DNA of 64,000 nucleotides from Candidatus Beckwithbacteria bacterium CG10_big_fil_rev_8_21_14_0_10_34_10 (GCA_002773945.1 PEZT01000028.1:4034-68033), one strand, 5' to 3'. Shown: positions 1,380 through 64,000, numbered from the stretch's first letter. Notes: generated by a model not told the origin, from the letters alone. Numbers and translations are program-made.

Positions 1380-4548
<3,169 letters not shown>

Positions 4549-11983: not shown

Positions 11984-12403
11984 ATGAAAAAAGAATTTTT
12001 AATTGTATTTCTCTTTTTATCTTTTTTCTTTGTTTTTCCTCATAAAACTAAAGCTGCCAGACAAAGAACTAGAAAACCAAAAAAAGAACTTACCTATACC
12101 GCTAGAGGAGTTGTAAGCCGAGTTAAATTTAGACCAGATAGATTGGGTCTTTTATTAAACTTTTCTAACTTTCAAAATTTACAGTCAGGTAGATATGAAC
12201 TTATCTATGATACTAATGGGGTTACCCAAGGAGCCGGGGGTTCAATTATCTTAGGAGATTCTAGCACTAAAGAACTTCTTTTTGGCACTTGTTCAGGCAA
12301 TGTTTGTAATTTCCATGAAAATATATCAAATGCCAGACTATCAATTGTCTCAACTTTAAAAGATGGAACAGTAATATTAAAACCTTATCGGATTAAGGTT
12401 TAG
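11984..12403 (+). CDS. Hypothetical secreted protein
   Basis: 139 aa. The N-terminal hydrophobic signal-like segment is MKKEFLIVFLFLSFFFVFPHKTKA. Confidence 0.4.
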   Translation: MKKEFLIVFLFLSFFFVFPHKTKAARQRTRKPKKELTYTARGVVSRVKFRPDRLGLLLNFSNFQNLQSGRYELIYDTNGVTQGAGGSIILGDSSTKELLFGTCSGNVCNFHENISNARLSIVSTLKDGTVILKPYRIKV

Positions 12404-13752: not shown

Positions 13753-14676
13753 ATGAAATTAAAAGCTTTAGCTTTAATATCTGGTGGTCTTGATTCAATT
13801 TTAGCGGCTCTTTTAATCCAAAAACAGGGAATTAAAGTCACTGGTTTAGTTTTTAAAAGCGCTTTTTTTGACCCCTCTTCTATTAAAAAGACTCTTAAAA
13901 AATATAATTTACCTCTTAGAATTGTTAATATTTCTGAAAAACACTTAAAGATAGTTAAAAAACCTGAATATGGCTACGGTAAAGTCATGAATCCTTGCCT
14001 AGATTGCCATTTATTGATGTTAAAAGAAGCTAAAAAATTAATCAAAAACCCTGGTTTTTCCTTTATTATTACGGGTGAAGTTTTAGGTCAAAGACCTTTT
14101 TCCCAAAATAAAAACTCCTTAAATTTACTGGAGAAAAAAGCTAATCTTAAGGGTTTAATATTGCGGCCTTTATCAGCCCAGATTTTAGAGGAAACTATTC
14201 CAGAAAAAAAAGGCTGGGTTAATAGAGATAAGCTTTTAGATATTTCCGGCCGCTCTCGTCAAATTCAGTTAAAGTTAAGGAAAAAGTTTAAACTTACTGG
14301 TTATTCTACTCCAGGAACAGCCTGTATTTTAACTGATCCTCAGTTTGGAAAAAGATTGAAAAATCTTTTGAAGTATCACTCTTTCGCTTCTTTAAATGAT
14401 ATTCTGCTTTTAAAATTTGGCCGGCATTTTTGGAAAGATTCTAATTTAATTGTAGTTGGTCGAAATGATAAAGAGAATAAATTATTGAAAAAATGTACTC
14501 AAAAGAGTGATTTATTGTTTGAACTTAAGTCTTTTACTGGACCGTTAGTTTTAGTAAGAACTTATCAAAAAAGGACTTTAAAAAAGACTTTAAGTGAAGC
14601 TAAAAAATTACTTTGTTTTTACTCTCGCCATACAAGAGAAAAACCACTTCCAGAAGTTGAATTTAGATATTTATAA
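13753..14676 (+). CDS. PP-loop superfamily ATP pyrophosphatase, tRNA-thiolation-type (MnmA/ThiI-like)
   Basis: 307 aa. SGGLDS is the PP-loop. It is followed by NPCLDCH cysteines, as in the tRNA sulfurtransferase family. Confidence 0.5.
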   Translation: MKLKALALISGGLDSILAALLIQKQGIKVTGLVFKSAFFDPSSIKKTLKKYNLPLRIVNISEKHLKIVKKPEYGYGKVMNPCLDCHLLMLKEAKKLIKNPGFSFIITGEVLGQRPFSQNKNSLNLLEKKANLKGLILRPLSAQILEETIPEKKGWVNRDKLLDISGRSRQIQLKLRKKFKLTGYSTPGTACILTDPQFGKRLKNLLKYHSFASLNDILLLKFGRHFWKDSNLIVVGRNDKENKLLKKCTQKSDLLFELKSFTGPLVLVRTYQKRTLKKTLSEAKKLLCFYSRHTREKPLPEVEFRYL

Positions 14677-17306: not shown

Positions 17307-18722
17307 TTAAAACCCTATTCCTTTATATATTAATCTAATACTTTGTTTAACCTCATCTTTAAGTCTTTGGCCATCTTTTTTGAGAATACTTTTTTTAAAG
17401 ATTAGATGACCCATTCGTAATAAAGGACGAATTGTACTGCCAGTCCTAGGAACACCATCTACTAAAAGGAATTCTTTTTGGGGATTTTTAATTGATTTTG
17501 TAGTAAAACCTTCTCTAATAAATTTAAGTTGTTGACTACCTAATTGATAAACTCCAGCTTTAATCTCCCCTTTAGTCTTTCGATATTTAGCCACTTTATT
17601 ACTTAATATTAAATGACTCCCTTTTTTTGAATTTTTGTAAATTCTATCAACTCTGTCAAAATTCATTTGATAGTTTATATTTAAAAGCTCTAAAAGGTGA
17701 AAAACATCAAAAGGCGGTTCTTTATTTTCTTTTTGGAGCATGGAATAAACTGGAAAAGCACCAGTATATCGAGGGTTACATTCACAGGCATATACCTTTT
17801 CTGTTTCTTTATCTATTATAAGGTCTATTCCAAATATCCCCCTATAACCTCTCGCCCCCATATAGCTTCCAATTGATCTGGCTAAACTTTCAGCTTGAGC
17901 TTGAATTTTAGAAGAATAGGTTTTAAAACTCCAATCATGACCGCAATAAAGACCACTCCCCTTATTCATGTTGACTACCAAAGGTTGATCTAAAATCTGT
18001 TTTTGGACGATGCCGGTTAAAACTCCATGGCGGGTGATACAACCGGTAATACTAGGAGAATCACCAGTAATAAATTTATAGAGGATAACCCTTTTTAAAT
18101 CAAAAGTATTTTTATATTTTTTAGCTTTTTTTGTGAAGTTTTTAAAATCTGAAAGGGTTTTAATGAAAACCAAGGAATTACCACCACCCTTGGTTAATTC
18201 TGGTAAAATTAAGACTAATTTTTTCCACCGCTTTAAATATTTTTCTAGTCTTTTTTTATCTAGTTCTTCAATTTTAAAAGTTTCATTAGGAATGGTTTCT
18301 AAACCAATCTTTTGAAGCATTCTTTTAAAATGCCATTTATTCTCATAAACATCCCTAACTTTGGCCCTATTAGCTACAATAGTCAGTCCTAGCCGATCAC
18401 AAATTCTTTCTACTTTTTTAGTTGAGTGATATAAAACTAAATAAGGGAATCTCAAAGAAGCTAAATATTTTTGCACCTGACGGTTTTTTAGTAAAGCCAA
18501 AGTATTATATTTCCCAACCTTTTCTCCTTTTTTTAAAAAATCCTTTTCTACCGATAGAACTTTAATCTTTTTTCCTATTACTTGATTATCCAAAGTGTCT
18601 TTAACACATAAAAGCTGGTAGTTAGGTAAAACCAAGCCTGGCCCGATCCTGGAAAAAGCAGTAATACCCACCCCAATTAAAGGATAAGGAAAAGACTTAA
18701 GTTTGTTTAAATAGTCATCCAT
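17307..18722 (-). CDS. ATP-grasp domain enzyme (amidoligase-like)
   Basis: 471 aa. GIFGIDLIIDKETEKVYACECNPRYTG is the ATP-grasp catalytic-loop signature (E-x-N-x-R). Confidence 0.6.
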   Translation of the reverse strand: MDDYLNKLKSFPYPLIGVGITAFSRIGPGLVLPNYQLLCVKDTLDNQVIGKKIKVLSVEKDFLKKGEKVGKYNTLALLKNRQVQKYLASLRFPYLVLYHSTKKVERICDRLGLTIVANRAKVRDVYENKWHFKRMLQKIGLETIPNETFKIEELDKKRLEKYLKRWKKLVLILPELTKGGGNSLVFIKTLSDFKNFTKKAKKYKNTFDLKRVILYKFITGDSPSITGCITRHGVLTGIVQKQILDQPLVVNMNKGSGLYCGHDWSFKTYSSKIQAQAESLARSIGSYMGARGYRGIFGIDLIIDKETEKVYACECNPRYTGAFPVYSMLQKENKEPPFDVFHLLELLNINYQMNFDRVDRIYKNSKKGSHLILSNKVAKYRKTKGEIKAGVYQLGSQQLKFIREGFTTKSIKNPQKEFLLVDGVPRTGSTIRPLLRMGHLIFKKSILKKDGQRLKDEVKQSIRLIYKGIGF

Positions 18723-18804
18723 ATTAAAAAATATATCATATTTAAAACTAAAAAACTCACTTAAAAGCGAGATTCTTTAGATCCTAAATTAAAAACAGAA
18801 AAAA

Positions 18805-20112
18805 TTATTTTATATCCGAACTAACTAAAAAACCCTTAAGGTCTCCTCTACCAATAATCATCGGCCTTTTAAGATTCGACCTGTCAGAAATATTGGCCGT
18901 GGTTTTTATTTTTTGGCCACTTAAGAAAAAGGTGACTGGAACAACTGGTCTTTTCTGCCTTCCTAAGGCTGATTTATAGACACCTTCAAAAAGAATATTT
19001 TCCGGGTGTAAAAGCCCAAGTTTTTGCGCCAGTTTTCTATCAATTGAAGTGGTATAAGCGCCAGTATCTACTTTTGCTTGAACTGAAATCCTATCTCCTA
19101 AAAAAGACTGTACTTCTACTTGGTGAAAAACATTAACAGTTTTTTTACCGGTAACTATATCTCTAAGTTTTGGATCCAAAAAAAGGGCTTTGGCTATTTT
19201 AATTCCTTTTTCCGGACTATCTACCTCTAAGCCCTCAACTCTTTCTAATCTTCTTCTTAAACCAGCTTTGTTAGCTAACTGAATTTTTAAGCCTGGCTGA
19301 GCATTAAGCTCTAAAACCTTAGGAAAGGTTTTACCTGGTTTTTTTAATGACGGTTGAAGAGCAATATCTACTCTCATAAAGTTGAGTTCGGGCACAGTAA
19401 GCTGACAGTTAATCGCTAATTTAAGAATCTCGTCCCAGATTGGTATTTTTATTCCCTTTAATTTCCTTCTAGTTCCGGGAAAAAAATCGATCTCTTTACT
19501 TCCCTTAACCCCACCAATAGTAATCCCAGAAGAAATATCAATGCCGCAGGCAATTGCACCCTGATGCATATTAGCCCTACCTCCTGATTCTTTGGTGGGC
19601 AGTCTTAAAAAAGCCATCACCGGGATTCGGTTAAAAACCACTACTCCAATGTCTGGGGTTCCACCCCAACTAACTTTTTCAAAAATGGGATGAACTCTAA
19701 TTCTTTCTTCTACAAAAGCAAAATCTGGCTGACCCCTCATGGAAAACCGACCTTCAATAATTTCTCTAAGTAAAAGCTTTAAATCATTTACTGTTTTTGT
19801 ATCTTCCGTTGTGGTAATCCATTCGCCCGCATATCGACCCTGTCTTTCAATTACTAAAATTCCTTCTCCTCCCAAAGAATTATCTGGTTTAATCACATAA
19901 CTTTCTGGTAATTTTTTAAGAAAATTAAATTTATCAATGTCTTCAAATCTTCTAAAAACGCGGTAGAGCTTAGGAATAGGCAGTTTTGCTTTTCTTAAAA
20001 CGTTTTTAGTTAGAAGCTTATGATTGGCAATAAGTTTGCCCCCTTTTTTGTTATACTTTGAGGAGAAAAGAACATTACGAGAATTTAATCCTAAAATATC
20101 CCGGGTTTTCAT
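18805..20112 (-). CDS. RimK-like ATP-grasp (alpha-L-glutamate-ligase-like) fused to a C-terminal retropepsin-like/PF05618-type protease domain
   Basis: 435 aa. The N-terminal two-thirds is ATP-grasp (GGRANMHQG region). The C-terminal KVDTGAYTTSIDRKLAQKLGL contains the D-T-G-A aspartyl-protease-like motif, a domain typically found with RimK homologues. Confidence 0.6.
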   Translation of the reverse strand: MKTRDILGLNSRNVLFSSKYNKKGGKLIANHKLLTKNVLRKAKLPIPKLYRVFRRFEDIDKFNFLKKLPESYVIKPDNSLGGEGILVIERQGRYAGEWITTTEDTKTVNDLKLLLREIIEGRFSMRGQPDFAFVEERIRVHPIFEKVSWGGTPDIGVVVFNRIPVMAFLRLPTKESGGRANMHQGAIACGIDISSGITIGGVKGSKEIDFFPGTRRKLKGIKIPIWDEILKLAINCQLTVPELNFMRVDIALQPSLKKPGKTFPKVLELNAQPGLKIQLANKAGLRRRLERVEGLEVDSPEKGIKIAKALFLDPKLRDIVTGKKTVNVFHQVEVQSFLGDRISVQAKVDTGAYTTSIDRKLAQKLGLLHPENILFEGVYKSALGRQKRPVVPVTFFLSGQKIKTTANISDRSNLKRPMIIGRGDLKGFLVSSDIK

Positions 20113-21026
20113 TCCAAAAGCTTTTTAAATTTTTTGTATTCCAAAATCCTTAAACCAGCATAACGACCAATAAAGATATCTAAAAGAGCCACCCCTAAAA
20201 CACTAATTTCAGGTTTTAAAATAACAAATTTTTGCAAAAATTCCAGCTGAAGAACAAATGAACAGATTAAAGCCACTACTAAGGTTTCAAAACTCATTCT
20301 TAAAGCTCTTTTCATAGACATCCCAATTTGGATACTAATAAAGCTTTCTGCCAAAAGAATAAGGATTAGAATAGGAAAAATAGAAATATTCGTAATCGCA
20401 GTTAGATTCAAAGAAGGAGAAATACACATTAGGCCAAAAACAGCTAAGGAAACAAACCATAAAAGCAAAGCCATTCTGGGCAAATATTGAAGCTTCATTT
20501 TTCTAAAAAGTATTCTCGCTCCCATGGCCACCAGAATAATGGTAAAAAACAGTAACAGACCTTCAAAAATCCCAGTCGCCACAAAAGCGACTGATAAAAC
20601 AGCCGGTAAAAAGATCCCAAAACCCTTCATCCCCACAATATGGCGGGAACCGGCAATTAATGCTACTACTAATGGAAAAAGAAGAATTAAAACAATGGTA
20701 TTGGCTGGCACCCCCTGAGAAACCGCTCTTCTTATAGCATGCTGCAAAAAATTAGTTACTCTTAAAGACCCAATTGAATGATTAATTAAATACTTTTCTA
20801 GTTTTCCTTTAACTTCTGGAGTAGACTCAGTAATATCTTCTTTTTTCTCTACTTTTTCCTTTTCCTCAATTACTTCTCCTGTTGTTTCTGCTGAAGTGGT
20901 CGCCATCGCCGCCTCGGTAGCAGTTTGCGAAATTAAATCTTCCCCTTCTTTTTCTGCCAGAACTGGAAATTTAGAAAATGAAAAAAGAAGAAATAACCCA
21001 ATAAAAATACCAATTAATTTTTTCAT
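20109..21026 (-). CDS. 7-TM membrane protein (7TM partner of ATP-grasp/RimK systems; no transglutaminase head)
   Basis: 305 aa. Signal peptide, a ~70-aa Glu-rich extracytoplasmic segment, then 7 hydrophobic helices. The start overlaps the stop of the upstream ATP-grasp gene (ATGA overlap). Confidence 0.5.
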   Translation of the reverse strand: MKKLIGIFIGLFLLFSFSKFPVLAEKEGEDLISQTATEAAMATTSAETTGEVIEEKEKVEKKEDITESTPEVKGKLEKYLINHSIGSLRVTNFLQHAIRRAVSQGVPANTIVLILLFPLVVALIAGSRHIVGMKGFGIFLPAVLSVAFVATGIFEGLLLFFTIILVAMGARILFRKMKLQYLPRMALLLWFVSLAVFGLMCISPSLNLTAITNISIFPILILILLAESFISIQIGMSMKRALRMSFETLVVALICSFVLQLEFLQKFVILKPEISVLGVALLDIFIGRYAGLRILEYKKFKKLLE

Positions 21027-40907: not shown

Positions 40908-42668
40908 CTAGCTCTTTAGTAGTCGCTCTAATTCATTTTTCTTGGTTGTCTCATTAAGACTTTTATCATCCCGAAATCTTTTAAGCCTGGGAAACCTCAA
41001 GGCTAGTTTTGCTGTATGAATTGGAGATCTGGTAATTGTATCGGCTTCTATTTCTACTATTAAACCTGGCTTACACCAGACATCGGGATTTATATTTTTA
41101 TTAACCTGATATTCTTTTGGTTTTTTATATGTTTTAAGTTTTTGACACCTTTTATGTATTTCTCTCCATTGTTTATCCGTCAAACCAATCCCTATTTTAG
41201 AAACCGTTAAGAATTTATTTTTATCAACTATTCCGACAAGAAAAGCGCCAATCCCAAAATTCGTTCTCTTGCCTTTGCCTTTATAATATCCCATTACCAC
41301 ACAGTCAATTGTATCGGCCAGGTCTGACTGCATCCCAACCTTATACTTTACCCAATTAAAGTTCCGATTTCCTGCTTGATAAACTGCATCTAATTTTTTA
41401 GCCATTAGTCCTTCCAACTCCTCAGACACTACCTTTTCAAAAAACTGATTAAATTCATTCGGCTTTTTGACAATTATTTGTCTTGTTAAAATAATTGCTT
41501 TTTCTTCCCCCTTACTTTTATTCAATATTTTTTCTAAAAGAGTTCTTCTTTGTTTAAAAGTCATATTTAATAAAGGTTTATTATTTAAATATAAAATATC
41601 AAAAACAAAAACTTTTAAAGGTACTTCTATCGCTTTTTCTAAAATCCCATGTTTTCTTTTTCGCTGGACAGTTTCTTGAAAAGAAAGGAATTTTTTTGTC
41701 TGGGGATCAAAAGCAATTGCTTCACCATCAAGAATAGCGTTATCAACTTTTAATTTTTGAACTGCCTTAATAATTTCTGGAAACATATGGGTAGTATTAT
41801 CTAAATTACGGGAAAAAATCCTAACAAAATACTTTTCCTTATTCTCAAATAAACTAAGATTAGTTTCATCTTTTAGCTTAAATTTTTTTGATCTATCAAA
41901 GTGAATTTGACAGCGAAAGCCATCCATTTTTGGCTCCAAAGCACATTGACCATCCATTTTTTCTAAGATTTCCTCCGGTTTTTTTAATCTTTCCGCTAAA
42001 GCCGCCCTAATCGGAATTCCCACTTCACTTTTAATTTTTTTAATTCCCTTTATCCCTTTGGTTTTAAAAACAAAAGCAATTTTACCTACATCAGCCAAAA
42101 CATTGAAAGCTCTTTCCAGTTCCGGCCTTAATGATTTATCTTGGTTTTCCATCCAGGATAAAGCATCTAAAACAGTCATATCTGAAAAGCCCAATCTTAA
42201 TCGATTAACCGGAATTCTGGCAATATATTTGGCGCTTAAAGAATCAAGTTTTTCTAGAAGTTCAGCCATTTTTTTTATTTTTCTTTCCTGGCTACCCGTC
42301 CCACTATCTTGAGCGATTTTAAAAAGCATTTCAAAAACATCACTTACACTTAAATTAAAGTCATCTTTTGTTTTTTTAAATCTTTTAATTACATCCCCTA
42401 AATCTCCAATTTCTTTAAAAGCCGCTAGAACTTCTTTCTCCTCAAATTTGGTTGATCGGGCAATTATTCTAACCATCATTTTTTCCGCTAAATTAAACTC
42501 AATCCCTTCATATTTTGGAGCCAATCTTCCTAAGCTAAGATAACAAACCTTATCAATTTCATCTTTTTGAGACTGCTTAAAAAGATCAGCTAGAACAGCT
42601 GTCATTTCCAATCTGGAAGGGGTATTTTCTATTTTGTTTAAAAATTTGGCTAGGGTTTTAAACTTCAT
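40908..42668 (-). CDS. ATP-dependent DNA ligase (Lig1/archaeal-type)
   Basis: 586 aa. EPKMDGFRCQIH is adenylation motif I (KxDG). OB-fold and other nucleotidyltransferase motifs follow. Confidence 0.8.
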   Translation of the reverse strand: MKFKTLAKFLNKIENTPSRLEMTAVLADLFKQSQKDEIDKVCYLSLGRLAPKYEGIEFNLAEKMMVRIIARSTKFEEKEVLAAFKEIGDLGDVIKRFKKTKDDFNLSVSDVFEMLFKIAQDSGTGSQERKIKKMAELLEKLDSLSAKYIARIPVNRLRLGFSDMTVLDALSWMENQDKSLRPELERAFNVLADVGKIAFVFKTKGIKGIKKIKSEVGIPIRAALAERLKKPEEILEKMDGQCALEPKMDGFRCQIHFDRSKKFKLKDETNLSLFENKEKYFVRIFSRNLDNTTHMFPEIIKAVQKLKVDNAILDGEAIAFDPQTKKFLSFQETVQRKRKHGILEKAIEVPLKVFVFDILYLNNKPLLNMTFKQRRTLLEKILNKSKGEEKAIILTRQIIVKKPNEFNQFFEKVVSEELEGLMAKKLDAVYQAGNRNFNWVKYKVGMQSDLADTIDCVVMGYYKGKGKRTNFGIGAFLVGIVDKNKFLTVSKIGIGLTDKQWREIHKRCQKLKTYKKPKEYQVNKNINPDVWCKPGLIVEIEADTITRSPIHTAKLALRFPRLKRFRDDKSLNETTKKNELERLLKS

Positions 42669-45307: not shown

Positions 45308-45991
45308 TTACACTATTTTCTTAAAAACAGGAGAAAGAAGAAAAACTAAACCTAAAACCAAAAGAATAATAGTGGGATAGGAAACTCCAGTCACTGGAAT
45401 TGGCGGTGATCCATCAGTTCCCCCTACTCCAGGACTTGAACTTGGATTTGGACTAGAGCTAGCACTTGGGCTTGGACTAACATCAGTGGCTGATAAAGTA
45501 TAACTGCCATTAATATTTGAAGTACAAACAATAATATCTAATGGAGTCGGATCATTAATATTAGAGTCTGTACTACTACCTTCAGTACAGTCAAAAGTCA
45601 TGGTGGCTGTTCCTGAAGTAGCTTTGGATTTAACTGTTAAGGTCGCTAAAGTACCGGTTCCGGTTTTGCTCTCCAGCATCGAACCTAAAGAAAGATTAGC
45701 ATTAATAACTACTTGGCCATTCGAATTATAAATATTGTAGGAAACATCATCAAAAAAGTCTCCTTCAGCTACCGTTGATACCTCTAAAAGGCTGGCATCA
45801 TAATTAATGACTGCTTTAGCGCTTTTAGCCGCTTGGCCGCCAGTATCAATATTAACTCCAACACTCGTTCCAGCTCCACTTATTATCCCAGAAGCCGGCG
45901 AAAGTTCTAAGTGAGGATCAGCTGCCAAGGCCTTTTTAGGAACAAAAAGAAAAAAAGAAAGTAATAAAAAAATAAGGCAGGTTTTTTTCAT
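45308..45991 (-). CDS. Secreted cohesin-like domain protein with Ser/Pro linker and sortase-like C-terminal sorting signal
   Basis: 227 aa. Signal peptide. The beta-rich domain has the VINYDASLLEV cohesin-like segment. The PSPSASSSPNPSSSP linker is followed by IPVTG, a hydrophobic helix and a KKIV tail, which is an LPxTG-like pattern. Confidence 0.5.
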   Translation of the reverse strand: MKKTCLIFLLLSFFLFVPKKALAADPHLELSPASGIISGAGTSVGVNIDTGGQAAKSAKAVINYDASLLEVSTVAEGDFFDDVSYNIYNSNGQVVINANLSLGSMLESKTGTGTLATLTVKSKATSGTATMTFDCTEGSSTDSNINDPTPLDIIVCTSNINGSYTLSATDVSPSPSASSSPNPSSSPGVGGTDGSPPIPVTGVSYPTIILLVLGLVFLLSPVFKKIV

Positions 45992-46005
45992 ATATTTAAT
46001 ATAAC

Positions 46006-46599
46006 TTAGTTTATTTTAATAGTCAAAGGAGCCGCTTCCTTTAATAAATCTTGACCACCATATCCAGCAATATGAGTTTTATCTTCATCAAAAATAAACT
46101 CAGCCGAACCTTTTTCTTTGGCCATCACTGATAAACTAACCACTATTTCCTGATTTAATTTTTCATTTTTATTAACATCTTGTAAGGCAATTACTCTTAC
46201 CTCTTCCTTATCTAAATCAATCTTTTTTTGGGGATAAAGTTTAAAATAACTGTTTTCTTTGATTTCTTTTATTTCAATAATTTTGGAATCAAAACCTAAA
46301 ACAAACTCAACTCCATCAACTTCTTCTCCTTGACCATCAACTAAAACTTGCAGCTCAAAAGTCTCTCCCTGATCGTAACTTTTTTTATTGGTTTTAAGGA
46401 AAAGGGTAAGATTATTTTCAGCCTTAATTTCTCCTAAATCAAATTCTCTTGGTGAAGGTTCAACTTCCTTAGTAATTGTCTCTATTTCTTTATCTAACCT
46501 GGAAATTTCCTTTTCTGTCCACTGACGGAAAATAAAATAGCCGAATAAAGCTAGTCCTAACATTAAAAAAATAGAGACTAAAGGAACATATTTCTTCAT
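46006..46599 (-). CDS. Membrane-anchored protein with cohesin-like beta domain
   Basis: 197 aa. N-terminal TM segment. VEFVLGFDSKIIEIKEI resembles the cohesin f-x-l-x-YD...L motif. Confidence 0.4.
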   Translation of the reverse strand: MKKYVPLVSIFLMLGLALFGYFIFRQWTEKEISRLDKEIETITKEVEPSPREFDLGEIKAENNLTLFLKTNKKSYDQGETFELQVLVDGQGEEVDGVEFVLGFDSKIIEIKEIKENSYFKLYPQKKIDLDKEEVRVIALQDVNKNEKLNQEIVVSLSVMAKEKGSAEFIFDEDKTHIAGYGGQDLLKEAAPLTIKIN

Positions 46600-46608
46600 T
46601 TTTCTCCT

Positions 46609-47934
46609 TTATTCATCATCTGGTCTTTCTGACAAAGTTTTGTATAAAAGATCAATATCAGTACTGTCTGTCACACTGTCAAAATTAGCATCAGCCCAAT
46701 GACAGGTATCATCATAAAGCTGATCTCCCATTTTAGCATTAGCTTCTACGCAGGATTTAATAACTGAATAGTCGGTTACTCCCACACTTCCATTCTGATC
46801 AATATCCCCAAATTCTAAAGGCCGGTTGCTAAAATCAAATTGAAAATTGTCTAAATCTATATCAATCCCTGTTCCCCTAGGACAAGTGGTTTCTTTTCCT
46901 TGATTATCAACACAAAATATAATCTGACGGTGAGAAGGTCCTTTAAGTTTAACAATATAAGTGCCATCAGTTAAAACAGGTGGTGGAGAAGAACTTGTAT
47001 AAACATAACCCAATGTTCCTTCTATATTGTAAGGTGAGGGACAACTATTATCTCCAGGGATATTGAAATGATCATAAACCTGGCCACCAGCATAACAGCG
47101 ACGCAAGGGTACAGTTCCTTCAATTTGATTAGGATATATATAAACAACAAAGTCTTCCATTTGATAAGGTGAAGGGCAACTATCACCAGTTTTGGAAAAA
47201 TGGTCTTGGACCTGACCACCAGCATAACATCTATATAAAGGAACTGTTCCTGTTTGCTGGCTGATAGAAGCATAAAATAAGGTTCCTTCCCAATTATAGC
47301 CTTCTAAACCTTCGCAATCTCCCTGAGTAGTAATAAAATGGTCTTTTTGGGGATTTGCTCCTCCCCGATAACACCTTCCTACTTTAACTAAACCTGAGGG
47401 ATTAGGACTAACTGGAGCTGAAGACGGAGAAGGAGAAGGGCTGGAGTTAACCCCGCATGGTCCAAGAGTTTTAGTATTAGTTAACTGGGTATCATTACCT
47501 TGGCCAATATTTACTCCAATAGCAGTAATCTGATAAGTTCCTCCATCTTTTAAACTTTCGGGTGTCTGAATACTAAAACCATGATTGCAGTTCCCCCCGC
47601 AAGAATCACAAACCCCCTGTTCTCTTGTTTTATCTGCTTTAACTGTAGCTATTAATTGATTCCCAGCATAAATTTCAACATCAATTGTTTTTTTATAACC
47701 AGTCTTATCACAAGCCCAACCAGCTATCTTATTACAATCAGCCCCATCTAAAAATCCTTTAGGACTTTTAGACGAAGATGCTGATTGAGAATATATTTCG
47801 GCCTGTTTAACTGTTTTACTTTCTAAAGTAATAATACCACCTATAAAAAATAGAAGGCTTAAGGTACCTAGTATTAAAGCACTATAAAATGGCAGGTGGG
47901 TATTTTTTATGTTTATCTTCATTTTATTCACCAT
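46609..47934 (-). CDS. Membrane-anchored surface protein with DUF5648-like (LYRCY...DHF) repeats and C-terminal dockerin-like Ca-binding repeats
   Basis: 441 aa. There are two copies of TVPL(Y/R)RCYAGGQV(Q/Y)DHF. The C-terminal DIDQNGSVGVTDYSVIK and ADANFDSVTDSTDIDLLYK resemble the dockerin DxNxDGxVxxxD pair. Confidence 0.45.
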   Translation of the reverse strand: MVNKMKINIKNTHLPFYSALILGTLSLLFFIGGIITLESKTVKQAEIYSQSASSSKSPKGFLDGADCNKIAGWACDKTGYKKTIDVEIYAGNQLIATVKADKTREQGVCDSCGGNCNHGFSIQTPESLKDGGTYQITAIGVNIGQGNDTQLTNTKTLGPCGVNSSPSPSPSSAPVSPNPSGLVKVGRCYRGGANPQKDHFITTQGDCEGLEGYNWEGTLFYASISQQTGTVPLYRCYAGGQVQDHFSKTGDSCPSPYQMEDFVVYIYPNQIEGTVPLRRCYAGGQVYDHFNIPGDNSCPSPYNIEGTLGYVYTSSSPPPVLTDGTYIVKLKGPSHRQIIFCVDNQGKETTCPRGTGIDIDLDNFQFDFSNRPLEFGDIDQNGSVGVTDYSVIKSCVEANAKMGDQLYDDTCHWADANFDSVTDSTDIDLLYKTLSERPDDE

Positions 47935-56542: not shown

Positions 56543-56944
56543 CTATAGAAGTTGGTTAACATTTAACTTGATATTTTTTAACTTAAAAGAAAGGTTGTGT
56601 TTAGTAGTTTTAGGAGGAAAGTGTTGATTTGATAGTCCCTTTTTTATAACCGCTTCTTTAATGACATTTATCATTAGTTCTTTTCTTCTCAAATAAACTT
56701 TAATATTTTTACTTTTATAATCAACCAATAGAACCGGAATTTTTTTAGCTTTCATTTTCTTAAGCGCGGCCAGGCGGTGATGGCCATCTAAAACAATTAA
56801 TGTTTTTTGATCGACCACCACCGGATTTATTAATAAACCGCTTAACTTAATACTCTCAAAAACCTGATTAACTCTATCCTTAACTACAGCCTCATGAGTA
56901 TTAAGTTTATTGATATCAACCAACTTGATTTTCAATTTTTTCAT
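56543..56944 (-). CDS. ParB/sulfiredoxin-like nuclease-domain protein
   Basis: 133 aa. [13 protein letters not shown] matches the ParB N-terminal domain GxxR/HH region. Confidence 0.5.
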
Positions 56945-58254
56945 TTTAGTCTTTGATATAAATAATCATCATAGCCTTTTAAATCAAGCAGTCCATGCCC
57001 TGAAAAATTAAAAACAATAACTTTTTTCCTCCCTTCCTTTTTGGCTTTAAGAGCCTCATCAATGGCGGCTTTAACAGCATGGGCTGTTTCTGGAGCCGGA
57101 ATAATTCCTTCAGTCCGACTAAAATCAATGGCCGCCTTAAAAACCTCCAGTTGAGAATAACTTTTGGCTTTCATCAAACCCCCATGATGCAAAAAAGCCA
57201 GACTGGGAGCAATTCCATGATAACGTAAACCACCAGCATGAATTGGCGGTGGAACAAAATCACAACCCAAAGTTTTCATTTTTAAAAGTGGGGTTTGCTT
57301 ACCACTATCACCAAAATCATAAGCATATTTACCCCGGCATAAAGAGGCACAGTTTTCTGGCTCCACCCCAATAAATTCAAGGTTCTTTTTTTTGCCGGCC
57401 AGTTTATCGGCCAAAAAAGGAAAAGCAAAACCAGCAAAGTTACTCCCTCCGCCGCAACAGCCAATTAAAACATCAGGATATTCTCCAGCTTTTTCCATTT
57501 GTTTTTTAACCTCCAAACCAATCACTGTTTAGTGTAATAAAACATGGTTTAAAACACTTCCTAAGGAATATTTCGCCTCTTTTTTGGAAGCCGCCACTTC
57601 AATTGCTTCAGCAATGGCCATGCCTAAACTACCATGAGTTTTAGGAAATTTTTTAATAAAAACTCTGCCAATCCTGGTTTTAGTTGATGGACTAGAAATA
57701 ACCCGACTCTTAAAAATTTCCATCACTATTTTCCGATACGGCTTTTGCTCATAGGAAATTTTGACCATAAAAACCAAGCATTTTAATTTAAAAAAATTAC
57801 AAGCCATACTTAAGGCAGAACCCCACTGACCAGCTCCAGTTTCTGTCACCAGCATTTTAACGCCCTCTTTTTGGTTATAAAAAGCTTGGACGAGAGCAGT
57901 ATTAAGCTTATGACTACCAGCTGGACTAGCTCCTTCATATTTATAATAAATATGAGCAGGAGTATCTAAAAACTTCTCCAAACCCCGAGCTCTAAAAAGC
58001 GGAGTCGGCCGATAAAGTTTATAAATTTCCCTCACCTCGTTAGGAATTTTAACATTTTTTTCCAAAGTCACTTCCTGTCTGATTAATTCTTTTGGAAAAA
58101 TTGGCTCTAAATCTCTAGCTGTAATCGGCTTTTTGGTCAACGGATGCAAAGCCGGATCCGGTAATTTACCTAAATATTTTTTAAAATAATAATTAATATT
58201 TAAAAAATATTCCGGTATCTGTTTCTCATTTAATAAAAATTTTGTATTTTCCAT
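56941..58254 (-). pseudogene. trpB2: TrpB2-type tryptophan synthase beta subunit, interrupted by one in-frame TAA (57531..57529)
   Basis: Two track ORFs share one frame and are separated only by TAA. The N-terminal part has the PLP-lysine motif GASPAGSHKLNTAL. The C-terminal part has [11 protein letters not shown]. The junction reads ...VLNHVLLH*TVIGLE..., where TrpB proteins have HQTVIG, implying CAA to TAA. Confidence 0.65.
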
Positions 58255-59890: not shown

Positions 59891-59964
59891 GTAGCAGGGG
59901 TGGGGGTCGAACCCACGACCTCCGGGTTATGATTCCGACGCTCTAACCAACTGAGCTACCCTGC
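59891..59964 (-). tRNA. tRNA-Met (anticodon CAU)
   Basis: The reverse complement is GGCAGGGTAGCTCAGTTGGTTAGAGCGTCGGAATCATAACCCGGAGGTCGTGGGTTCGACCCCCACCCCTGCTA. It forms a cloverleaf with anticodon loop ATCATAA, T-loop TTCGACC, and one A:C mismatch in the anticodon stem. Confidence 0.8.
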
Positions 59965-60092
59965 CTCATTTTGTAGCGGGTCCAAAGTAACGCTCTTTGG
60001 TTAAGTGAGGTTATGAGCCTCACGGGATACTTACCCCCCACCCGCTATCTTAAACTACCCTTATATCTTATCAGATTTAGAGAAAAATTCAA

Positions 60093-60470
60093 TTATTTGA
60101 AAAGTTCCAGCCACTTTTGCCAATTCTGCTTGTTTTCCTCTTTTCCTTCAAAAGTGTCTTTTTTAATCCCTTCGTATGAAGTAGAAATTCTACCCTGACT
60201 AATTTCTTCAGGAAGAATAATAATGGTTTCTCCTTTTTTGGCCATCTGTAACTTATTTCTAATCTGTTCTTCTAAAAATTCATCACTCTGATAGTGTTTA
60301 TTTAATTCTTCTAGTTCTCTGTTTTCTTCTTTTAATTTAGCTAAATTTTCTTGGGATTTAGTAATTCTCTCTTCAGAATTATAAAGCCGCCAAACATCCC
60401 GAGAAAGATTGATAATTAAAATAAAACTTAGAAAAAAAACTAGTAAACTCAGTCTTTTATTAATTGACAT
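60093..60470 (-). CDS. FtsB/DivIC-like septum-formation initiator (TM + coiled coil)
   Basis: 125 aa. N-terminal TM helix, followed by the heptad-rich segment QENLAKLKEENRELEELNK. Confidence 0.4.
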   Translation of the reverse strand: MSINKRLSLLVFFLSFILIINLSRDVWRLYNSEERITKSQENLAKLKEENRELEELNKHYQSDEFLEEQIRNKLQMAKKGETIIILPEEISQGRISTSYEGIKKDTFEGKEENKQNWQKWLELFK

Positions 60471-60566
60471 CTATCCCTTTTATTGATATTATCATTAACT
60501 ATAAAATAAATATAATATTTATTTATAAGTTAAATTAAAAGTCTTTTTTTATCTTTTAGAATTTAA

Positions 60567-61433
60567 ATGGCCAAAACTATTCTCGGTTTAAAATCAGCCC
60601 ATAGCGATTTTTTAGATTTTTTGAAAGAAAAGGGTCGGGCTTCAGCTACCATTTTAGCATATGGTTCAGACCTCCAACAATTAATTGATTTTTGCCTTCA
60701 GCTTAAAAGAAGCCGGGTTGACGAAATTACCAACTCCGACCTTGAGGCTTTTAAGAATTTTTTGAAAAAGGAGGATTATACAGCTAAATCTATTTCTCGA
60801 AAAATTAACTCTATTAAAACATTTTTTAAATACCTTCATGTTCAAAAACATATTTCTGATAATCCGTCTATTGCCTTAACTCATCCTAAATATGAAGTTA
60901 AACCACCTCGAGTTCTATCAAAAATGGAATATCGGGCCCTAAGAGATGTTTGCCGAAATGACCGAAGAATTTTTGCTATTATCGAGCTTTTTTTGCAAAC
61001 TGGCATAAGAATTGGCGAATTAGCCTATCTTCAACTAGAAGATATTAAAAAGAATTCCTTGATTATTAGAGCCCATGAATCTCATCCCAGCCGCCAGATC
61101 CCTTTAAATAGAGCCGCTAAATTATCTTCGGAAAACTATTTGTCAATCAGACCAAAAAGTAAATCAAAATACCTTTTTATTACTAAAAGCGGTAAACCTT
61201 TTTTAATTAGAAATATTAGAAGCACTTTATCAAGATATTTTAAACTAGCTGGTATTGAAAAAGTTAAGGTTAATGACTTAAGACACACCTTTATTGCTCA
61301 TCAATTAAGAGCGGGCACTCCCCTAACTTTAGTTTCCAAGATAACCGGCCATAAAAGGCTTTCTACTACTGAAAAATATCTTGACTTGATTAAAAAATCT
61401 TCAGTGGAAAAGTTTAAATTAGAAGAATTATAA
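60567..61433 (+). CDS. Tyrosine site-specific recombinase (XerC/XerD-like)
   Basis: 288 aa. Phage-integrase N-terminal SAM-like domain. The C-terminal catalytic residues R...HxxR...Y are at LRHTFIAHQLRAG and TTEKYL. The stop codon lies 4 nt from the tRNA 3' end. Confidence 0.8.
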   Translation: MAKTILGLKSAHSDFLDFLKEKGRASATILAYGSDLQQLIDFCLQLKRSRVDEITNSDLEAFKNFLKKEDYTAKSISRKINSIKTFFKYLHVQKHISDNPSIALTHPKYEVKPPRVLSKMEYRALRDVCRNDRRIFAIIELFLQTGIRIGELAYLQLEDIKKNSLIIRAHESHPSRQIPLNRAAKLSSENYLSIRPKSKSKYLFITKSGKPFLIRNIRSTLSRYFKLAGIEKVKVNDLRHTFIAHQLRAGTPLTLVSKITGHKRLSTTEKYLDLIKKSSVEKFKLEEL

Positions 61434-61437
61434 ATTG

Positions 61438-61510
61438 TGGGCCAGGATGGATTCGAACCGTCGACCCCTATCTTATAAGGATAGTGCTCTAGCCGCTGAG
61501 CTACTGGCCC
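61438..61510 (-). tRNA. tRNA-Ile (anticodon UAU)
   Basis: The reverse complement is GGGCCAGTAGCTCAGCGGCTAGAGCACTATCCTTATAAGATAGGGGTCGACGGTTCGAATCCATCCTGGCCCA. The anticodon stem CTATC/GATAG is perfect, the loop is CTTATAA, and anticodon positions 34-36 are TAT. Confidence 0.8.
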
Positions 61511-61556
61511 CTGAAAAAACAATCCTATTATACTAAATTTTTAGTTTTTTATGAAG

Positions 61557-63920
61557 TTATAGTTTAGATCTTTGGCCTATTTCTGCTTCAATAATTTCTT
61601 TGTCTTTACCAAATTTTAATCTAGATAGTTGCTTAATCATTTCAGCTACTTTAGTACTTCTAAGTTTTTTAATCTGGGTCATATCTTTAGAAAGATCCAT
61701 GGAAAAAGCTGGGACTGGTTCATTGTTAACTATGGTTTTAATAAAAACATTATATTTTTCAACATTAATAAGGTCTGTTTCAGAAAAAGTTGGTTGAAAT
61801 TCATGTTGAAGATAGTTAGCATCAGTCACCCCAACTCTAAAAGAAACTAGAGAACCAACATTACCAAAAACAGCGTTTTTAACCTCTTCATCTACCTGGC
61901 CGATAAATTGGTTAGCAACAGTTAAATTCAGTTTATATTTTCTCGCCTCAGAAAGAATTTGGGCAAAATCAGGAGTGGCGAAGTTTTGGAACTCATCAAC
62001 ATAAAGATAAAAATCTCGTCTTTTTTCCTCAGGTATATCCTGTCGACTCATAGCGGCAATTAAAATTTTAGGTACCAATACTAACCCTAAAAAGTTAGAA
62101 TTCTCTTCTCCAATCCTGCCTTTAGCTAAATTGATTAAAAGAATTTTACCTTCATCCATTACTTTTCTAAAATCAAAGGCTGATTTAGACTGACCAATAA
62201 TATTTCTCATCATTTTATTGGTAACAAAACGGCCAAATTTGGAAACAATATAGTCTAAAACTTCACTTTTATGAAATTCGTTCGTTTGAGCAATTTGATC
62301 AGTCCAATATCTTCTCACCATTGGATCTTTAACTTTAGGCAATAATTCCTGAACATATTTAGAATCGGTTAAAACTCTAACTATTTCTACAAAGGTACTG
62401 CCCGGCTCACTCATAACTGTTAACATTGCATTCCTAATAGCATGTTCAAACCTTGGACCAATGATTCCGGTCTTATGAGGATCATAAAGTTTATACATTA
62501 AACCAATAATTGAGTTAGCAATAAAATGCTGTTCTTCTTCCCCTCTGGCCTCTAACATATTAAGACCCATTGGCCTATCAGTATCTGAAGGATTAAAATA
62601 AATAACATCTTCCGCTCTTTCCGGAGGAATTAATTCTAGTATTTTTTCCACTGTATCATGAGGATCAATGAAACAAACCCCTTTGCCCTGACGGATATCC
62701 TGTAAAATCATATCAGTCATAAATTCAGATTTACCCACCCCGGTTTTTCCAATAATATAAACATGCTTTCTTCTATCTTCATCGGAAATAAAAACCGGCC
62801 TAGTCACCCCTCGATAAACACTTTTACCTAAATACAAACCTTTTTGGGGAATCAAGGCTGGAGCGGGGGCTGATTTAGCCGCTAACCAATGAATATGGGG
62901 CGTTTCGACTGATTTATTGGGAAAGTGAAAAATACTAGCCAATTCTTCACTATTCAAAACGCTTTTTTTATGCAAAATTGGAAGATAACGGTAAATAAAA
63001 TTAATCATAAAGGCTTTTTTAAACCAAGTATATTTCTTTTTAGTAAAACCATTTAAGCCTGAAGTAAATTGAGAAAATGAACCAACAATATTAGCTAAAT
63101 AGCTTCTAGCCTTTTCCTTATCTCCGGCAGTAACAACTATTCTTATAATCGTGTTAAATCCAGGTTTAGAACATTTACTCTCAATTTGTTCATATTGTTT
63201 AGGATCAACATTATATTTGGCTTTTTCCGGATCCGCTTCAGATTTCTTAGTTTTAGAAATATATGATTTGCCCGCCTGTTGCCATTTACTATTAGCTGGA
63301 GAAATTAAAACTTGAATTACCACTCCTTCATTATCTTGCATTTTGGCTAAAGATGAAGTTAAAGAGCTTAAGGGATCTGTAGGTAAATCTTTATAAACTT
63401 TAATTGGATAAAGACTGTTAGATTTTAGTCTTAAACTGGCAAACGCGACCTTACCTTCCTTAGAAAAAATATTATATTCATCAACTTCTTTAACTTCTGC
63501 TCCTGGATAAGCACCATGAATCTGCTTTTCTACCATATCTCTTAAATGATTAGGAACAGCCACATAAAAACGAATATCCTCTCTTTTAGCCACAATTTCA
63601 AAACTCAAATGATCCTCAGATTTAAGTTTGTCTCGAAAGCGAGTTTTTTTTATTGAGTAAAGAGAGGCAAACATTTGTTCAGCGGCATCAATTTTAATCT
63701 CGTTTCCCCGAGGAATAGCTACTTGAAGAAGGGAAAAATTCAAGGATTCTTCCTCTCTTTTGTTATGTTTTAACCAAAGGACTAAAAGATAAACTAAGCC
63801 ACCAATCCCCCCCAAACTAAAACCAGCTACCACTAGAAGGACTAAAAAGTAATTTAATAAACTAGTCAAATTACTTATGTTATTGGGACTATTTATTGGG
63901 CTACTTAACGCTTCCGCCAT
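61557..63920 (-). CDS. Membrane-anchored conjugation/T4SS-type AAA_10 ATPase (VirB4/TrbE/TraC-like; alternatively a VirD4/TraG-like coupling protein)
   Basis: 787 aa. N-terminal TM helices. Walker A IIGKTGVGKSEFM lies ~400 aa from the N-terminus. Walker B YLYVDEFQNF. The EARKYKLNLTVANQFIGQ motif is typical of T4SS ATPases. Confidence 0.55.
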   Translation of the reverse strand: MAEALSSPINSPNNISNLTSLLNYFLVLLVVAGFSLGGIGGLVYLLVLWLKHNKREEESLNFSLLQVAIPRGNEIKIDAAEQMFASLYSIKKTRFRDKLKSEDHLSFEIVAKREDIRFYVAVPNHLRDMVEKQIHGAYPGAEVKEVDEYNIFSKEGKVAFASLRLKSNSLYPIKVYKDLPTDPLSSLTSSLAKMQDNEGVVIQVLISPANSKWQQAGKSYISKTKKSEADPEKAKYNVDPKQYEQIESKCSKPGFNTIIRIVVTAGDKEKARSYLANIVGSFSQFTSGLNGFTKKKYTWFKKAFMINFIYRYLPILHKKSVLNSEELASIFHFPNKSVETPHIHWLAAKSAPAPALIPQKGLYLGKSVYRGVTRPVFISDEDRRKHVYIIGKTGVGKSEFMTDMILQDIRQGKGVCFIDPHDTVEKILELIPPERAEDVIYFNPSDTDRPMGLNMLEARGEEEQHFIANSIIGLMYKLYDPHKTGIIGPRFEHAIRNAMLTVMSEPGSTFVEIVRVLTDSKYVQELLPKVKDPMVRRYWTDQIAQTNEFHKSEVLDYIVSKFGRFVTNKMMRNIIGQSKSAFDFRKVMDEGKILLINLAKGRIGEENSNFLGLVLVPKILIAAMSRQDIPEEKRRDFYLYVDEFQNFATPDFAQILSEARKYKLNLTVANQFIGQVDEEVKNAVFGNVGSLVSFRVGVTDANYLQHEFQPTFSETDLINVEKYNVFIKTIVNNEPVPAFSMDLSKDMTQIKKLRSTKVAEMIKQLSRLKFGKDKEIIEAEIGQRSKL

Positions 63921-64000
63921 AACTTACCCTTTTAGGAAACATTTTTAATAATCTTTTACACCATATGGCTAACCATTTGATAGAGTCACTAACTTTTTTA

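Follow-up and report, generated by a model that had tools for sequence, protein, structure and literature searches.

tRNA-Ile(UAU), a Xer-type recombinase and an orphan secretion-type ATPase in a probably ancestral gene neighbourhood of the Microgenomates

Does a tyrosine recombinase gene that abuts the 3' end of a tRNA gene mark the boundary of an integrated element? The question is raised by a 64,000 nucleotide (nt) stretch of a metagenome-assembled genome of Candidatus Beckwithbacteria (CG10_big_fil_rev), referred to here as the window, the right end of which is at position 64000. Close to that end, such a recombinase and a membrane-anchored ATPase of the T4SS (type IV secretion system) superfamily are encoded on either side of a tRNA-Ile gene with a UAU anticodon. 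A preliminary description of the locus saw in the tRNA a possible attachment site (attL/attR) of an integrated conjugative element, with the recombinase as its integrase and the ATPase as transfer machinery, and proposed that AUA is decoded in an unusual way. We consider it highly probable that the stretch is instead an ancestral, vertically inherited neighbourhood of the Microgenomates (part of the candidate phyla radiation (CPR)/Patescibacteria), rather than a mobile-element junction.

The tRNA gene and its conserved neighbours

The ARAGORN program finds four tRNAs in the window, including a tRNA-Ile with anticodon tat at 61437-61510 (minus strand), and the Rfam tRNA model matches 61438-61510 with a score of 64.4 bits (gathering threshold 29, E 1e-11). 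In the Rfam alignment, the anticodon stem is CUAUC/GAUAG and the loop CUUAUAA; the minimum-energy fold is a cloverleaf, and CCA is not encoded. The UAU anticodon, perfect stem and loop that had been described are confirmed. The tRNA sits 46 nt downstream of the end of the ATPase open reading frame (ORF), the stop codon of which is overlapped by a promoter-like site on the same strand (61527-61555; TTCATA-17-TATAAT, 10 of 12 positions, recognised by consensus pattern match alone), 17 nt upstream of the tRNA 5' end. When 42 orthologues of this tRNA are aligned, 99.7% of cells are paired and 18 of the 21 pairs display compensatory changes on both sides, with shuffled and slid controls giving far lower values, whilst C32-U33-U34-A35-U36-A37, U12 and A73 are invariant. 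Because covariation is accompanied by an invariant loop, the gene can be taken to encode a functional tRNA whose UAU anticodon is fixed class-wide; it is under structural selection with an invariant UAU anticodon loop.

Evidence for an ancestral neighbourhood comes from gene order. Taking one genome per GTDB species gave 80 further ATPase loci from Beckwith-, Chisholm-, Gottesman-, Levy-, Woese-, Shapiro- and Curtissbacteria (ATPase identity 65-77%), 71 of which include 1 kb or more of sequence downstream of that gene. A tRNA-Ile(tat) gene is located 3-3220 nt after the ATPase gene in 65 of these 71 species loci and shares its strand in 64 of 70; an orthologue of the recombinase (47-61% identity) and then divIC (encoding a septum formation initiator) are found in 41 of the 71. 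Gene order is conserved across class-level divergence. In the complete Beckwithbacteria genome CP011210.1, for example, a small ORF is followed by the ATPase gene, a helix-turn-helix (HTH) gene, tRNA-Ile(UAU), a nucleotidyltransferase gene, xer (on the opposite strand) and divIC, and then by tRNA-Met, tRNA-Trp, trpS and trpB, with the HTH and nucleotidyltransferase genes representing two extras that flank the tRNA-Ile. Across the 41 loci, the similarity of Xer and of the ATPase to their window counterparts (as bit scores) co-varies (Spearman 0.575, p 8e-5), as would be expected under joint vertical descent. In the window, divIC (60093-60470, minus strand; Pfam DivIC, E 8.3e-15) is divergent from xer and adjoins it, as it does in the relatives; beyond xer, reading along the minus strand, come divIC, two tRNAs, a DUF6800 gene, trpS, a trpB-like gene and ftsH. 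On the other side, upstream of the ATPase gene, the relatives carry nrdR, ribonucleotide reductase, maf, a cobalamin adenosyltransferase-like gene and pyruvate kinase (pyk).

The recombinase (288 amino acids (aa), 60567-61433, plus strand) is convergent with the tRNA, its stop codon ending 4 nt before the discriminator base A73. That it is a tyrosine recombinase in this position, as first described, is clear from the ORF coordinates and from Pfam matches to Phage_integrase (E 2.9e-27) and Phage_int_SAM_1 (E 1.2e-14). The top NCBIfam models are XerD, XerC and archaeal XerA, each matched under its equivalog cut-off, and the nearest solved relatives are XerA (5hxy, E 1.3e-25) and XerD (1a0p, E 1.6e-22). 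The motifs TGxRxxEL, LRHTF and GH...Y align with those of XerA and XerD, and a SAM-like N-domain, a catalytic domain and the R..HxxR..H..Y residues are present. The same domain pair and catalytic residues characterise the single-recombinase Xer systems (archaeal XerA, XerS, XerH) and, as in these, one xer gene alone is seen in the neighbourhood. At ~85 kb from the start of the CP011210.1 record, the gene is not obviously at the terminus, near which Xer would act at a dif site. Since neither an att repeat nor a further T4SS gene turned up in the window, and since the syntenic block is conserved, the recombinase appears to be a housekeeping-type Xer. It is chromosomal and vertically inherited, with a syntenic orthologue in 41 of 71 loci that has diverged in step with the ATPase.

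Searches for an att repeat, which would duplicate the tRNA 3' end in the same orientation, were negative. The 22-mer from the tRNA 3' end, with up to three mismatches allowed, has no second copy in the 64-kb window (the search ends at 64000), general repeat finding between 52 and 64 kb returned AT-rich chance repeats only, and 16-mers of the tRNA 3' half gave no repeats in seven relatives with inserts (1.3-6.4 kb between tRNA and xer). The one near-match, in the locus L027, was rejected as an att repeat because it falls immediately 5' of the tRNA, in the D/anticodon region of the latter. Overall G+C content in the window is 33.8%, and values of 0.32-0.34 are seen on both sides of tRNA-Ile(UAU), without a shift. 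A domain scan of window ORFs of at least 100 aa identified no other T4SS (VirB/Tra) or relaxase domain, and no relaxase or T4SS channel gene is present in the window or in the ATPase flanks of the relatives. There are no transfer genes on the integrase side of the tRNA, where divIC, tRNAs, trpS and ftsH are found instead. Furthermore, because the tRNA lies between the ATPase on its 5' side and the recombinase on its 3' side, the ATPase is outside anything integrated at the tRNA 3' end.

The locus thus resembles tRNA-targeting islands as well as integrative and conjugative elements (ICEs) in having a recombinase gene that abuts the tRNA 3' end, and differs from them in the lack of an att repeat, in the lack of presence/absence polymorphism of the flanking genes and in having housekeeping genes on both sides. 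Given that att repeats and, in ORFs of at least 100 aa, further T4SS genes are lacking from the window and that the block is syntenic across lineages, the proposal of an integrative element boundary does not hold up. A more general caution is that a recombinase beside a tRNA is insufficient to call an island where gene order is conserved.

The membrane-anchored ATPase and competing explanations

The 787-aa ATPase (61557-63920, minus strand), which can be counted among the core genes of the Microgenomates, shares 100% identity with the hypothetical protein COT75_04960 from Ca. Beckwithbacteria CG10. It comprises a hydrophobic N-terminal helix (~residues 22-50), a DUF8128 domain (~55-345, DNA 62886-63758; PF26449 is precomputed on homologues) and a TrwB/VirB4-type P-loop domain (~360-787), with Walker A GKTGVGKS (391-398), Walker B FYLYVDEF (637-644) and ARKYKLNLTVANQFIGQ (659-675). 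Its description as a membrane-anchored T4SS-type ATPase with Walker A and B motifs is accordingly upheld by the ORF, its translation and profile matches to the VirB4/VirD4 superfamily. More than 7,000 homologues are found at E<=1e-5, the best 120 being 71-81% identical and the few of these 120 that are named by source being Beckwithbacteria or Patescibacteria group proteins; clustered at 50% identity, the family numbers 6,024 clusters at E<=1e-30 and 22,771 at E<=1e-3, with no relative in IMG/VR. Names given to homologues at NCBI include 'type IV secretory system conjugative DNA transfer family' and 'TraM recognition domain'. Within the neighbourhood, the ATPase is the most conserved of the proteins compared (median identity to the window 68%, as against 57% for Xer and 31% for both DivIC and TrpS).

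Sequence profiles put the ATPase nearer to coupling proteins than to VirB4. It passes the gathering threshold for Pfam TrwB_AAD_bind (22.3 bits versus 20.5) and falls just under that for TraG-D_C (21.9 versus 22), with weak DUF87 and FtsK_SpoIIIE matches, a partial SXT_TraD match (49 bits) and a CD1115 VirD4-like match; the NCBIfam type IV coupling protein (T4CP) models all score far under cut-off, as does the curated VirB4 model TIGR00929 (VirB4_CagE; 21.7 bits versus a cut-off of 643.1, not passed). Similarity to CedB/CedD is at ~E 1e-4, and a sequence-only search of the PDB gave marginal P-loop matches and nothing better. Predicted structure points in another direction. An AlphaFold2 model built on 62 homologues (mean predicted local distance difference test (pLDDT) score 80.9) has a long N-terminal helix, then an alpha/beta N-domain and then a P-loop domain into which an all-alpha segment (~461-575) is inserted. 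In a Foldseek search of the PDB the full model matched TrwK/VirB4 of R388 first, with a full-length alignment (E 2.5e-16), followed by TrwB (C-terminal half, template modelling (TM) score 0.59-0.62 normalised to TrwB) and then HerA. Residues 55-345 modelled alone (pLDDT 73.7, predicted TM score 0.77) gave TrwK/VirB4 as all of the best 14 PDB matches (E 2e-7 to 5e-5, TM score 0.45-0.50), with unrelated folds at E>1e-3 thereafter. Because the N-domain model matches TrwK/VirB4 only, DUF8128 is most likely a VirB4-type N-domain, and the ATPase is predicted to have a VirB4-like two-domain architecture despite the coupling-protein labels of profiles and NCBI names. The 'VirB4-like' label of the preliminary description is thus favoured by predicted structure and disfavoured by the sequence profiles.

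The modelled two-domain architecture is common to VirB4/TrwK of R388 (PDB 7o42, 7o43, 8rtd), from which the ATPase differs in its low identity (11-13%), in its own N-terminal membrane helix and in the absence of adjacent VirB3, VirB6, VirB8 or pilin genes. TrwB/VirD4/TraD share with it a membrane anchor and a P-loop domain with an all-alpha insertion; unlike these coupling proteins, the ATPase has an extra domain of ~290 aa between anchor and ATPase domain, and neither a relaxase nor a T4SS accompanies it in the window or the relatives' flanks.

The sole conserved partner of the ATPase is a small protein (~140 aa), an orthologue of which is encoded directly upstream on the same strand in 69 loci. 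The 3' part of its gene (C-terminal 32 codons and stop, translation ...KKVSDSIKWLAIWCKRLLKMFPKRVSYGGSVK followed by the stop) occupies 63901-64000 (minus strand) of the window, overlaps the ATPase start by 20 nt and continues past the window end; an exact 34-nt pattern from that end had no match in metagenome contigs, and a search of public contigs for the window's own ATPase, which could have extended the sequence past 64000, gave no record. The small protein has no Pfam family match and no evident hydrophobic segment. Together the two genes form an operon. The closest species representative (L004) also encodes a DUF8128 ATPase paralogue without the membrane helix (247-2427 of that locus, plus strand; 36% identity over 722 residues), situated 7.5 kb upstream of the anchored copy in housekeeping surroundings, with a DUF5667 protein next to it; this locus alone has an anchor-less paralogue within 10 kb of the ATPase. 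Three distant homologues from other CPR lineages occur in unrelated chromosomal contexts without recombinase or tRNA-Ile.

The ATPase belongs to a kind of protein already reported, the orphan 'T4CP homologue' of Patescibacteria. In 2,918 Patescibacteria genomes, 5,713 T4CP (VirD4-type) homologues were counted, only 148 of which lie close to virB4; exaptation was raised as a possibility (Quinonero-Coronel et al. 2025, PMC12102498). Like the ATPase described here, the orphans are chromosomal and far from a virB4 cluster or relaxase, and the L004 paralogue is in line with the roughly two T4CP homologues per genome found in that study. The same work treats the orphans as VirD4-like, whereas the model of the DUF8128 N-domain matches the VirB4 N-domain alone, and it reports the T4CP homologue of Southlakia to be non-essential (PMC12102498). 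We consider it likely that the ATPase works as a hexameric motor at the membrane, either transporting DNA or protein or building a surface structure. What is new here, the clade-wide tRNA-Ile(UAU) and a structural hint of a VirB4-like N-domain in orphan T4CP homologues, refines known kinds. With respect to the ATPase, it sharpens the published question of what role about two orphan T4CP homologues play in each Patescibacteria genome, by suggesting from predicted structure that the orphan family carries a VirB4-like N-domain and by adding at least one genome with anchored and anchor-less paralogues.

How, then, should the neighbourhood be explained? The integrated element of the preliminary description has in its favour an integrase-family gene 4 nt from the tRNA 3' end, an ATPase of the T4SS superfamily and the precedent of a locus (L087, 4500-12444) in which a homologue with 34% identity to the ATPase is part of an element with tRNA-Leu(UAG), an integrase, an excisionase-like HTH_17 protein and a Replic_Relax protein, so that relatives of the ATPase can occur in such elements. 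Yet it is very improbable for the window, given a block whose synteny extends to dozens of species, with identities of 65-77% for the ATPase and 47-61% for Xer, an ATPase on the tRNA 5' side, the lack of att repeats in window and insert-bearing relatives and of a GC shift, the run of divIC, tRNA-Met, trpS and ftsH after xer with no relaxase or other T4SS gene found, and the absence of a viral relative of the ATPase in IMG/VR. (The surroundings of the L087 element include transposases and a second TrwB-like gene; it is of the kind first imagined for the window, in another organism.) An older version of the idea is that an ICE beside tRNA-Ile in the Microgenomates ancestor was domesticated and its ATPase and recombinase were fixed as core genes. 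It would agree with the proposal that Patescibacterial T4SS genes derive from monoderm conjugative elements (PMC12102498), with the presence of distant homologues in elements that have an integrase and a relaxase-family gene, and with tRNA-flanking gaps that vary among species. Such an origin is nonetheless improbable: the recombinase has an N-domain of the XerC/D/A type (SAM_1) and its best matches are Xer proteins, the order with the ATPase 5' of the tRNA is unlike that of an ICE, and the homologues in other CPR lineages lie in those unrelated contexts. Alternatively, the neighbours might form a functional module, with the ATPase as an FtsK-like DNA pump that cooperates with Xer and DivIC when chromosome dimers are resolved or chromosomes segregated. 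The three genes are neighbours in 41 of 71 species, the ATPase is of the FtsK/HerA/VirD4 superfamily with weak FtsK_SpoIIIE, DUF87 and CedB matches and HerA structural matches, and its conservation is extreme (68% versus 31% for TrpS). We nevertheless judge the module unlikely, as the linkage is lost in ~40% of loci and absent in distant homologues, adjacency by itself says little in small genomes of conserved gene order, the ATPase shows no DNA-binding module resembling a gamma domain and the Southlakia homologue was reported not to be essential (PMC12102498).

The vertically inherited neighbourhood thus remains the explanation that we prefer, and several observations weigh against it. Linkage to xer is missing in ~40% of loci, and tRNA-Ile(UAU) is missing at the site in six of 71, including L004, where the ATPase and xer stop codons are 7 nt apart (12316-12323) with no tRNA-Ile(UAU) between them. 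In the relatives, the gap between tRNA and xer holds 0.1-6.4 kb of variable cargo (toxin-antitoxin-like pairs, an IS30-like transposase, RarA, ThyX), from which it follows that the site tolerates insertions. A recombinase 4 nt from the tRNA 3' end is in the classical position of an integrase, and the att search stops at 64000, with the right flank beyond it. The recombinase falls well under the equivalog cut-offs for XerD (155.8 of 329.6 bits) and XerA (143.7 of 220), a shortfall that would be expected for divergent CPR orthologues. To these can be added the L087 element, the function of the ATPase, which is inferred, and the status of tilS in the lineage, which may prove other than we suppose below. 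On the reading of vertical inheritance, the minus strand would run from the operon of small protein and ATPase through tRNA-Ile(UAU), with its own promoter-like site, to the convergent xer, divIC and a pair of tRNAs, one initiator-like and one elongator tRNA-Met. The recombinase would resolve chromosome dimers as a single XerA/XerS-like enzyme, and the ATPase would spend ATP in moving a substrate or assembling a membrane structure outside canonical conjugation, as an 'exapted T4CP homologue'.

Decoding of AUA

AUA is a common codon in the window, at 18.8 per 1000 codons in 20 genes, equal in abundance to AUG. At the ten AUA codons of the ATPase gene, 61 orthologues have Ile (49%), Val (24%), Leu (8%) or Met (3%), so that AUA aligns with Ile/Val rather than Met and is read as Ile; codon use and alignment together imply that an efficient reader is needed. 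The window tRNA-Ile(UAU) is 74% identical to the tRNA-Ile(GAU) of the rRNA operon, compared with 60% for tRNA-Met, and the anticodon arms of the two isoleucine tRNAs are near-identical (GAU, CUGUC CUGAUAA GACAG; UAU, CUAUC CUUAUAA GAUAG), on which basis tRNA-Ile(UAU) is probably descended from tRNA-Ile(GAU) via a G34-to-U change. The same route was taken by a Bacillus subtilis tilS suppressor, a tRNA-Ile1(GAU) with G34 changed to U (as cited in PMC3575796; PMC3919564). That suppressor is laboratory-derived, whereas the tRNA in the window is a natural gene fixed in a lineage.

Might this tRNA stand in for the lysidine system, in which TilS acts on a tRNA-Ile2(CAU)? In common gene orders, tilS often adjoins ftsH or hpt. 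No TilS-type PP-loop protein is encoded in the 64-kb window, including beside ftsH and an hpt-like phosphoribosyltransferase gene, and the two window matches to the SGGxDS PP-loop motif correspond to a ThiI-like/NFACT fusion and to SHMT; the motif gave no credible tilS match in 1.3 Mb of related loci, a small fraction of the genomes. The fusion itself, a ThiI-type PP-loop domain joined to an NFACT-R RNA-binding domain (13753-14676, plus strand), is not TilS. Nor does the tRNA cluster near divIC hold a tRNA-Ile2-like gene: of its CAU tRNAs, that at 59892-59965 (minus strand; ARAGORN and Rfam) is elongator-Met-like by acceptor-stem criteria (Silva et al. 2006, PMC1635315), with C3-G70, A4-U69 and G5-C68, and that at 59974-60046 is initiator-like.

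A UAU tRNA alone does not imply that tilS has been lost, because both systems coexist in some bacteria (PMC3575796). A redundant tRNA-Ile(UAU), in a genome that keeps tilS and tRNA-Ile2(CAU) and does not decode AUA free of lysidine, is a possibility to be taken seriously, though not the one that we favour. It would suit a gene present in ~98% of annotated bacterial genomes, the product of which is regarded as essential and nearly universal among bacteria and as a potential drug target (PMC12514573), as well as the six loci, L004 among them, from which tRNA-Ile(UAU) is missing at the site. Against it stand the lack of a TilS-type protein in the window, the Met-like or initiator-like character of the clustered CAU tRNAs and the retention, in 65 of 71 species with reduced genomes, of a UAU tRNA whose loop is invariant. 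On balance, decoding of AUA without lysidine in the lineage of this tRNA is at least an even prospect, and perhaps somewhat better. On our preferred reading, tRNA-Ile(UAU) would be the main or only AUA decoder, with U34 pairing with A, as in Mycoplasma mobile. For the whole class of Microgenomates the balance is level as to whether tilS and tRNA-Ile2-CAU were replaced by a tRNA-Ile(UAU) derived from tRNA-Ile(GAU) and kept together with elongator tRNA-Met and an atypical initiator tRNA.

Precedents for such a system are known. Taniguchi et al. (2013, PMC3575796) listed nine species without tilS that carry a tRNA-Ile(TAT) gene, and those of Mycoplasma mobile, Bifidobacterium and Neorickettsia likewise have an encoded UAU anticodon in a CUUAUAA/C loop. 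The M. mobile type of decoding likewise goes with an AT-rich genome in which AUA is frequent. These systems amount to a handful of species, whereas here tRNA-Ile(UAU) is found in 65 of 71 species loci of a class-level CPR lineage, and our literature search found no paper that joins tilS, lysidine or tRNA-Ile(TAT) with CPR or Patescibacteria. A class-level lineage that keeps tRNA-Ile(UAU) under selection would widen the nine-species picture and would supply numerous natural examples in which to ask how IleRS and the ribosome keep a U34 tRNA from reading AUG. If its decoding is indeed independent of TilS, the Microgenomates would be by far the largest bacterial lineage known to read AUA in this way. 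Such decoding would call for an IleRS that accepts U34, of the IleRS2 type or with Arg/Lys at the position of E. coli W905; the window contains no IleRS gene.

Other features of the window

The initiator-like tRNA(CAU) at 59974-60046 (minus strand) is atypical. Its sequence (AGCGGGU...GUGAGG CUCAUAA CCUCAC...ACCCGCU-A) has an A1-U72 pair, a short D-loop and a T-loop AGCGUUA in place of UUCRANY; it was missed by ARAGORN in the window and by Rfam even at E<=1. Its predicted fold is a cloverleaf (-32.7 kcal/mol, z -3.7), and ARAGORN does call the L004 counterpart, in which the T-stem has compensatory changes. At the corresponding position, other Microgenomates encode an initiator-like tRNA with C1xA72 or U1-A72 and a T-loop UGCGACU. 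In the divergent intergenic region between xer and divIC, 5' of xer, two overlapping promoter-like sites are found at 60464-60516 (plus strand; consensus pattern match alone), TTGACA-17-TATTAT (11 of 12, with TG) and TTATCA-16-TATAAT. Nearly all genes of the window are on the minus strand, and no replichore switch is evident in it by strand bias and GC skew, which gives little reason to expect a dif site beside xer of the XerS/difSL kind.

Beside trpS, the trpB-like PALP gene (56941-58254, minus strand) is broken by an in-frame TAA at 57529-57531 (...LNHVLLH*TVIGLE...), one C-to-T change from the Gln codon CAA, which could reflect a pseudogene, strain variation or an assembly error. In the rRNA operon (16S, tRNA-Ile(GAU), tRNA-Ala, 23S, 5S), a group I intron (1781-2057, minus strand; Rfam 57.8 bits) lies within the 23S rRNA gene. 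Two cohesin-domain proteins and a dockerin-plus-DUF5648 protein are encoded in a row at 45308-47934 (minus strand), beside a PD40/DUF5050 beta-propeller, and may constitute a cell-surface assembly module. A cluster at 17307-21026 (minus strand) encodes an ATP-grasp protein, an ATPgrasp_ST domain fused to Zn_protease and aspartyl-protease segments and a 7TM_transglut membrane protein. Finally, the gene for an ATP-dependent DNA ligase of the archaeal/eukaryotic, three-domain type adjoins that for a Fic-domain protein at 40908-42668 (minus strand).

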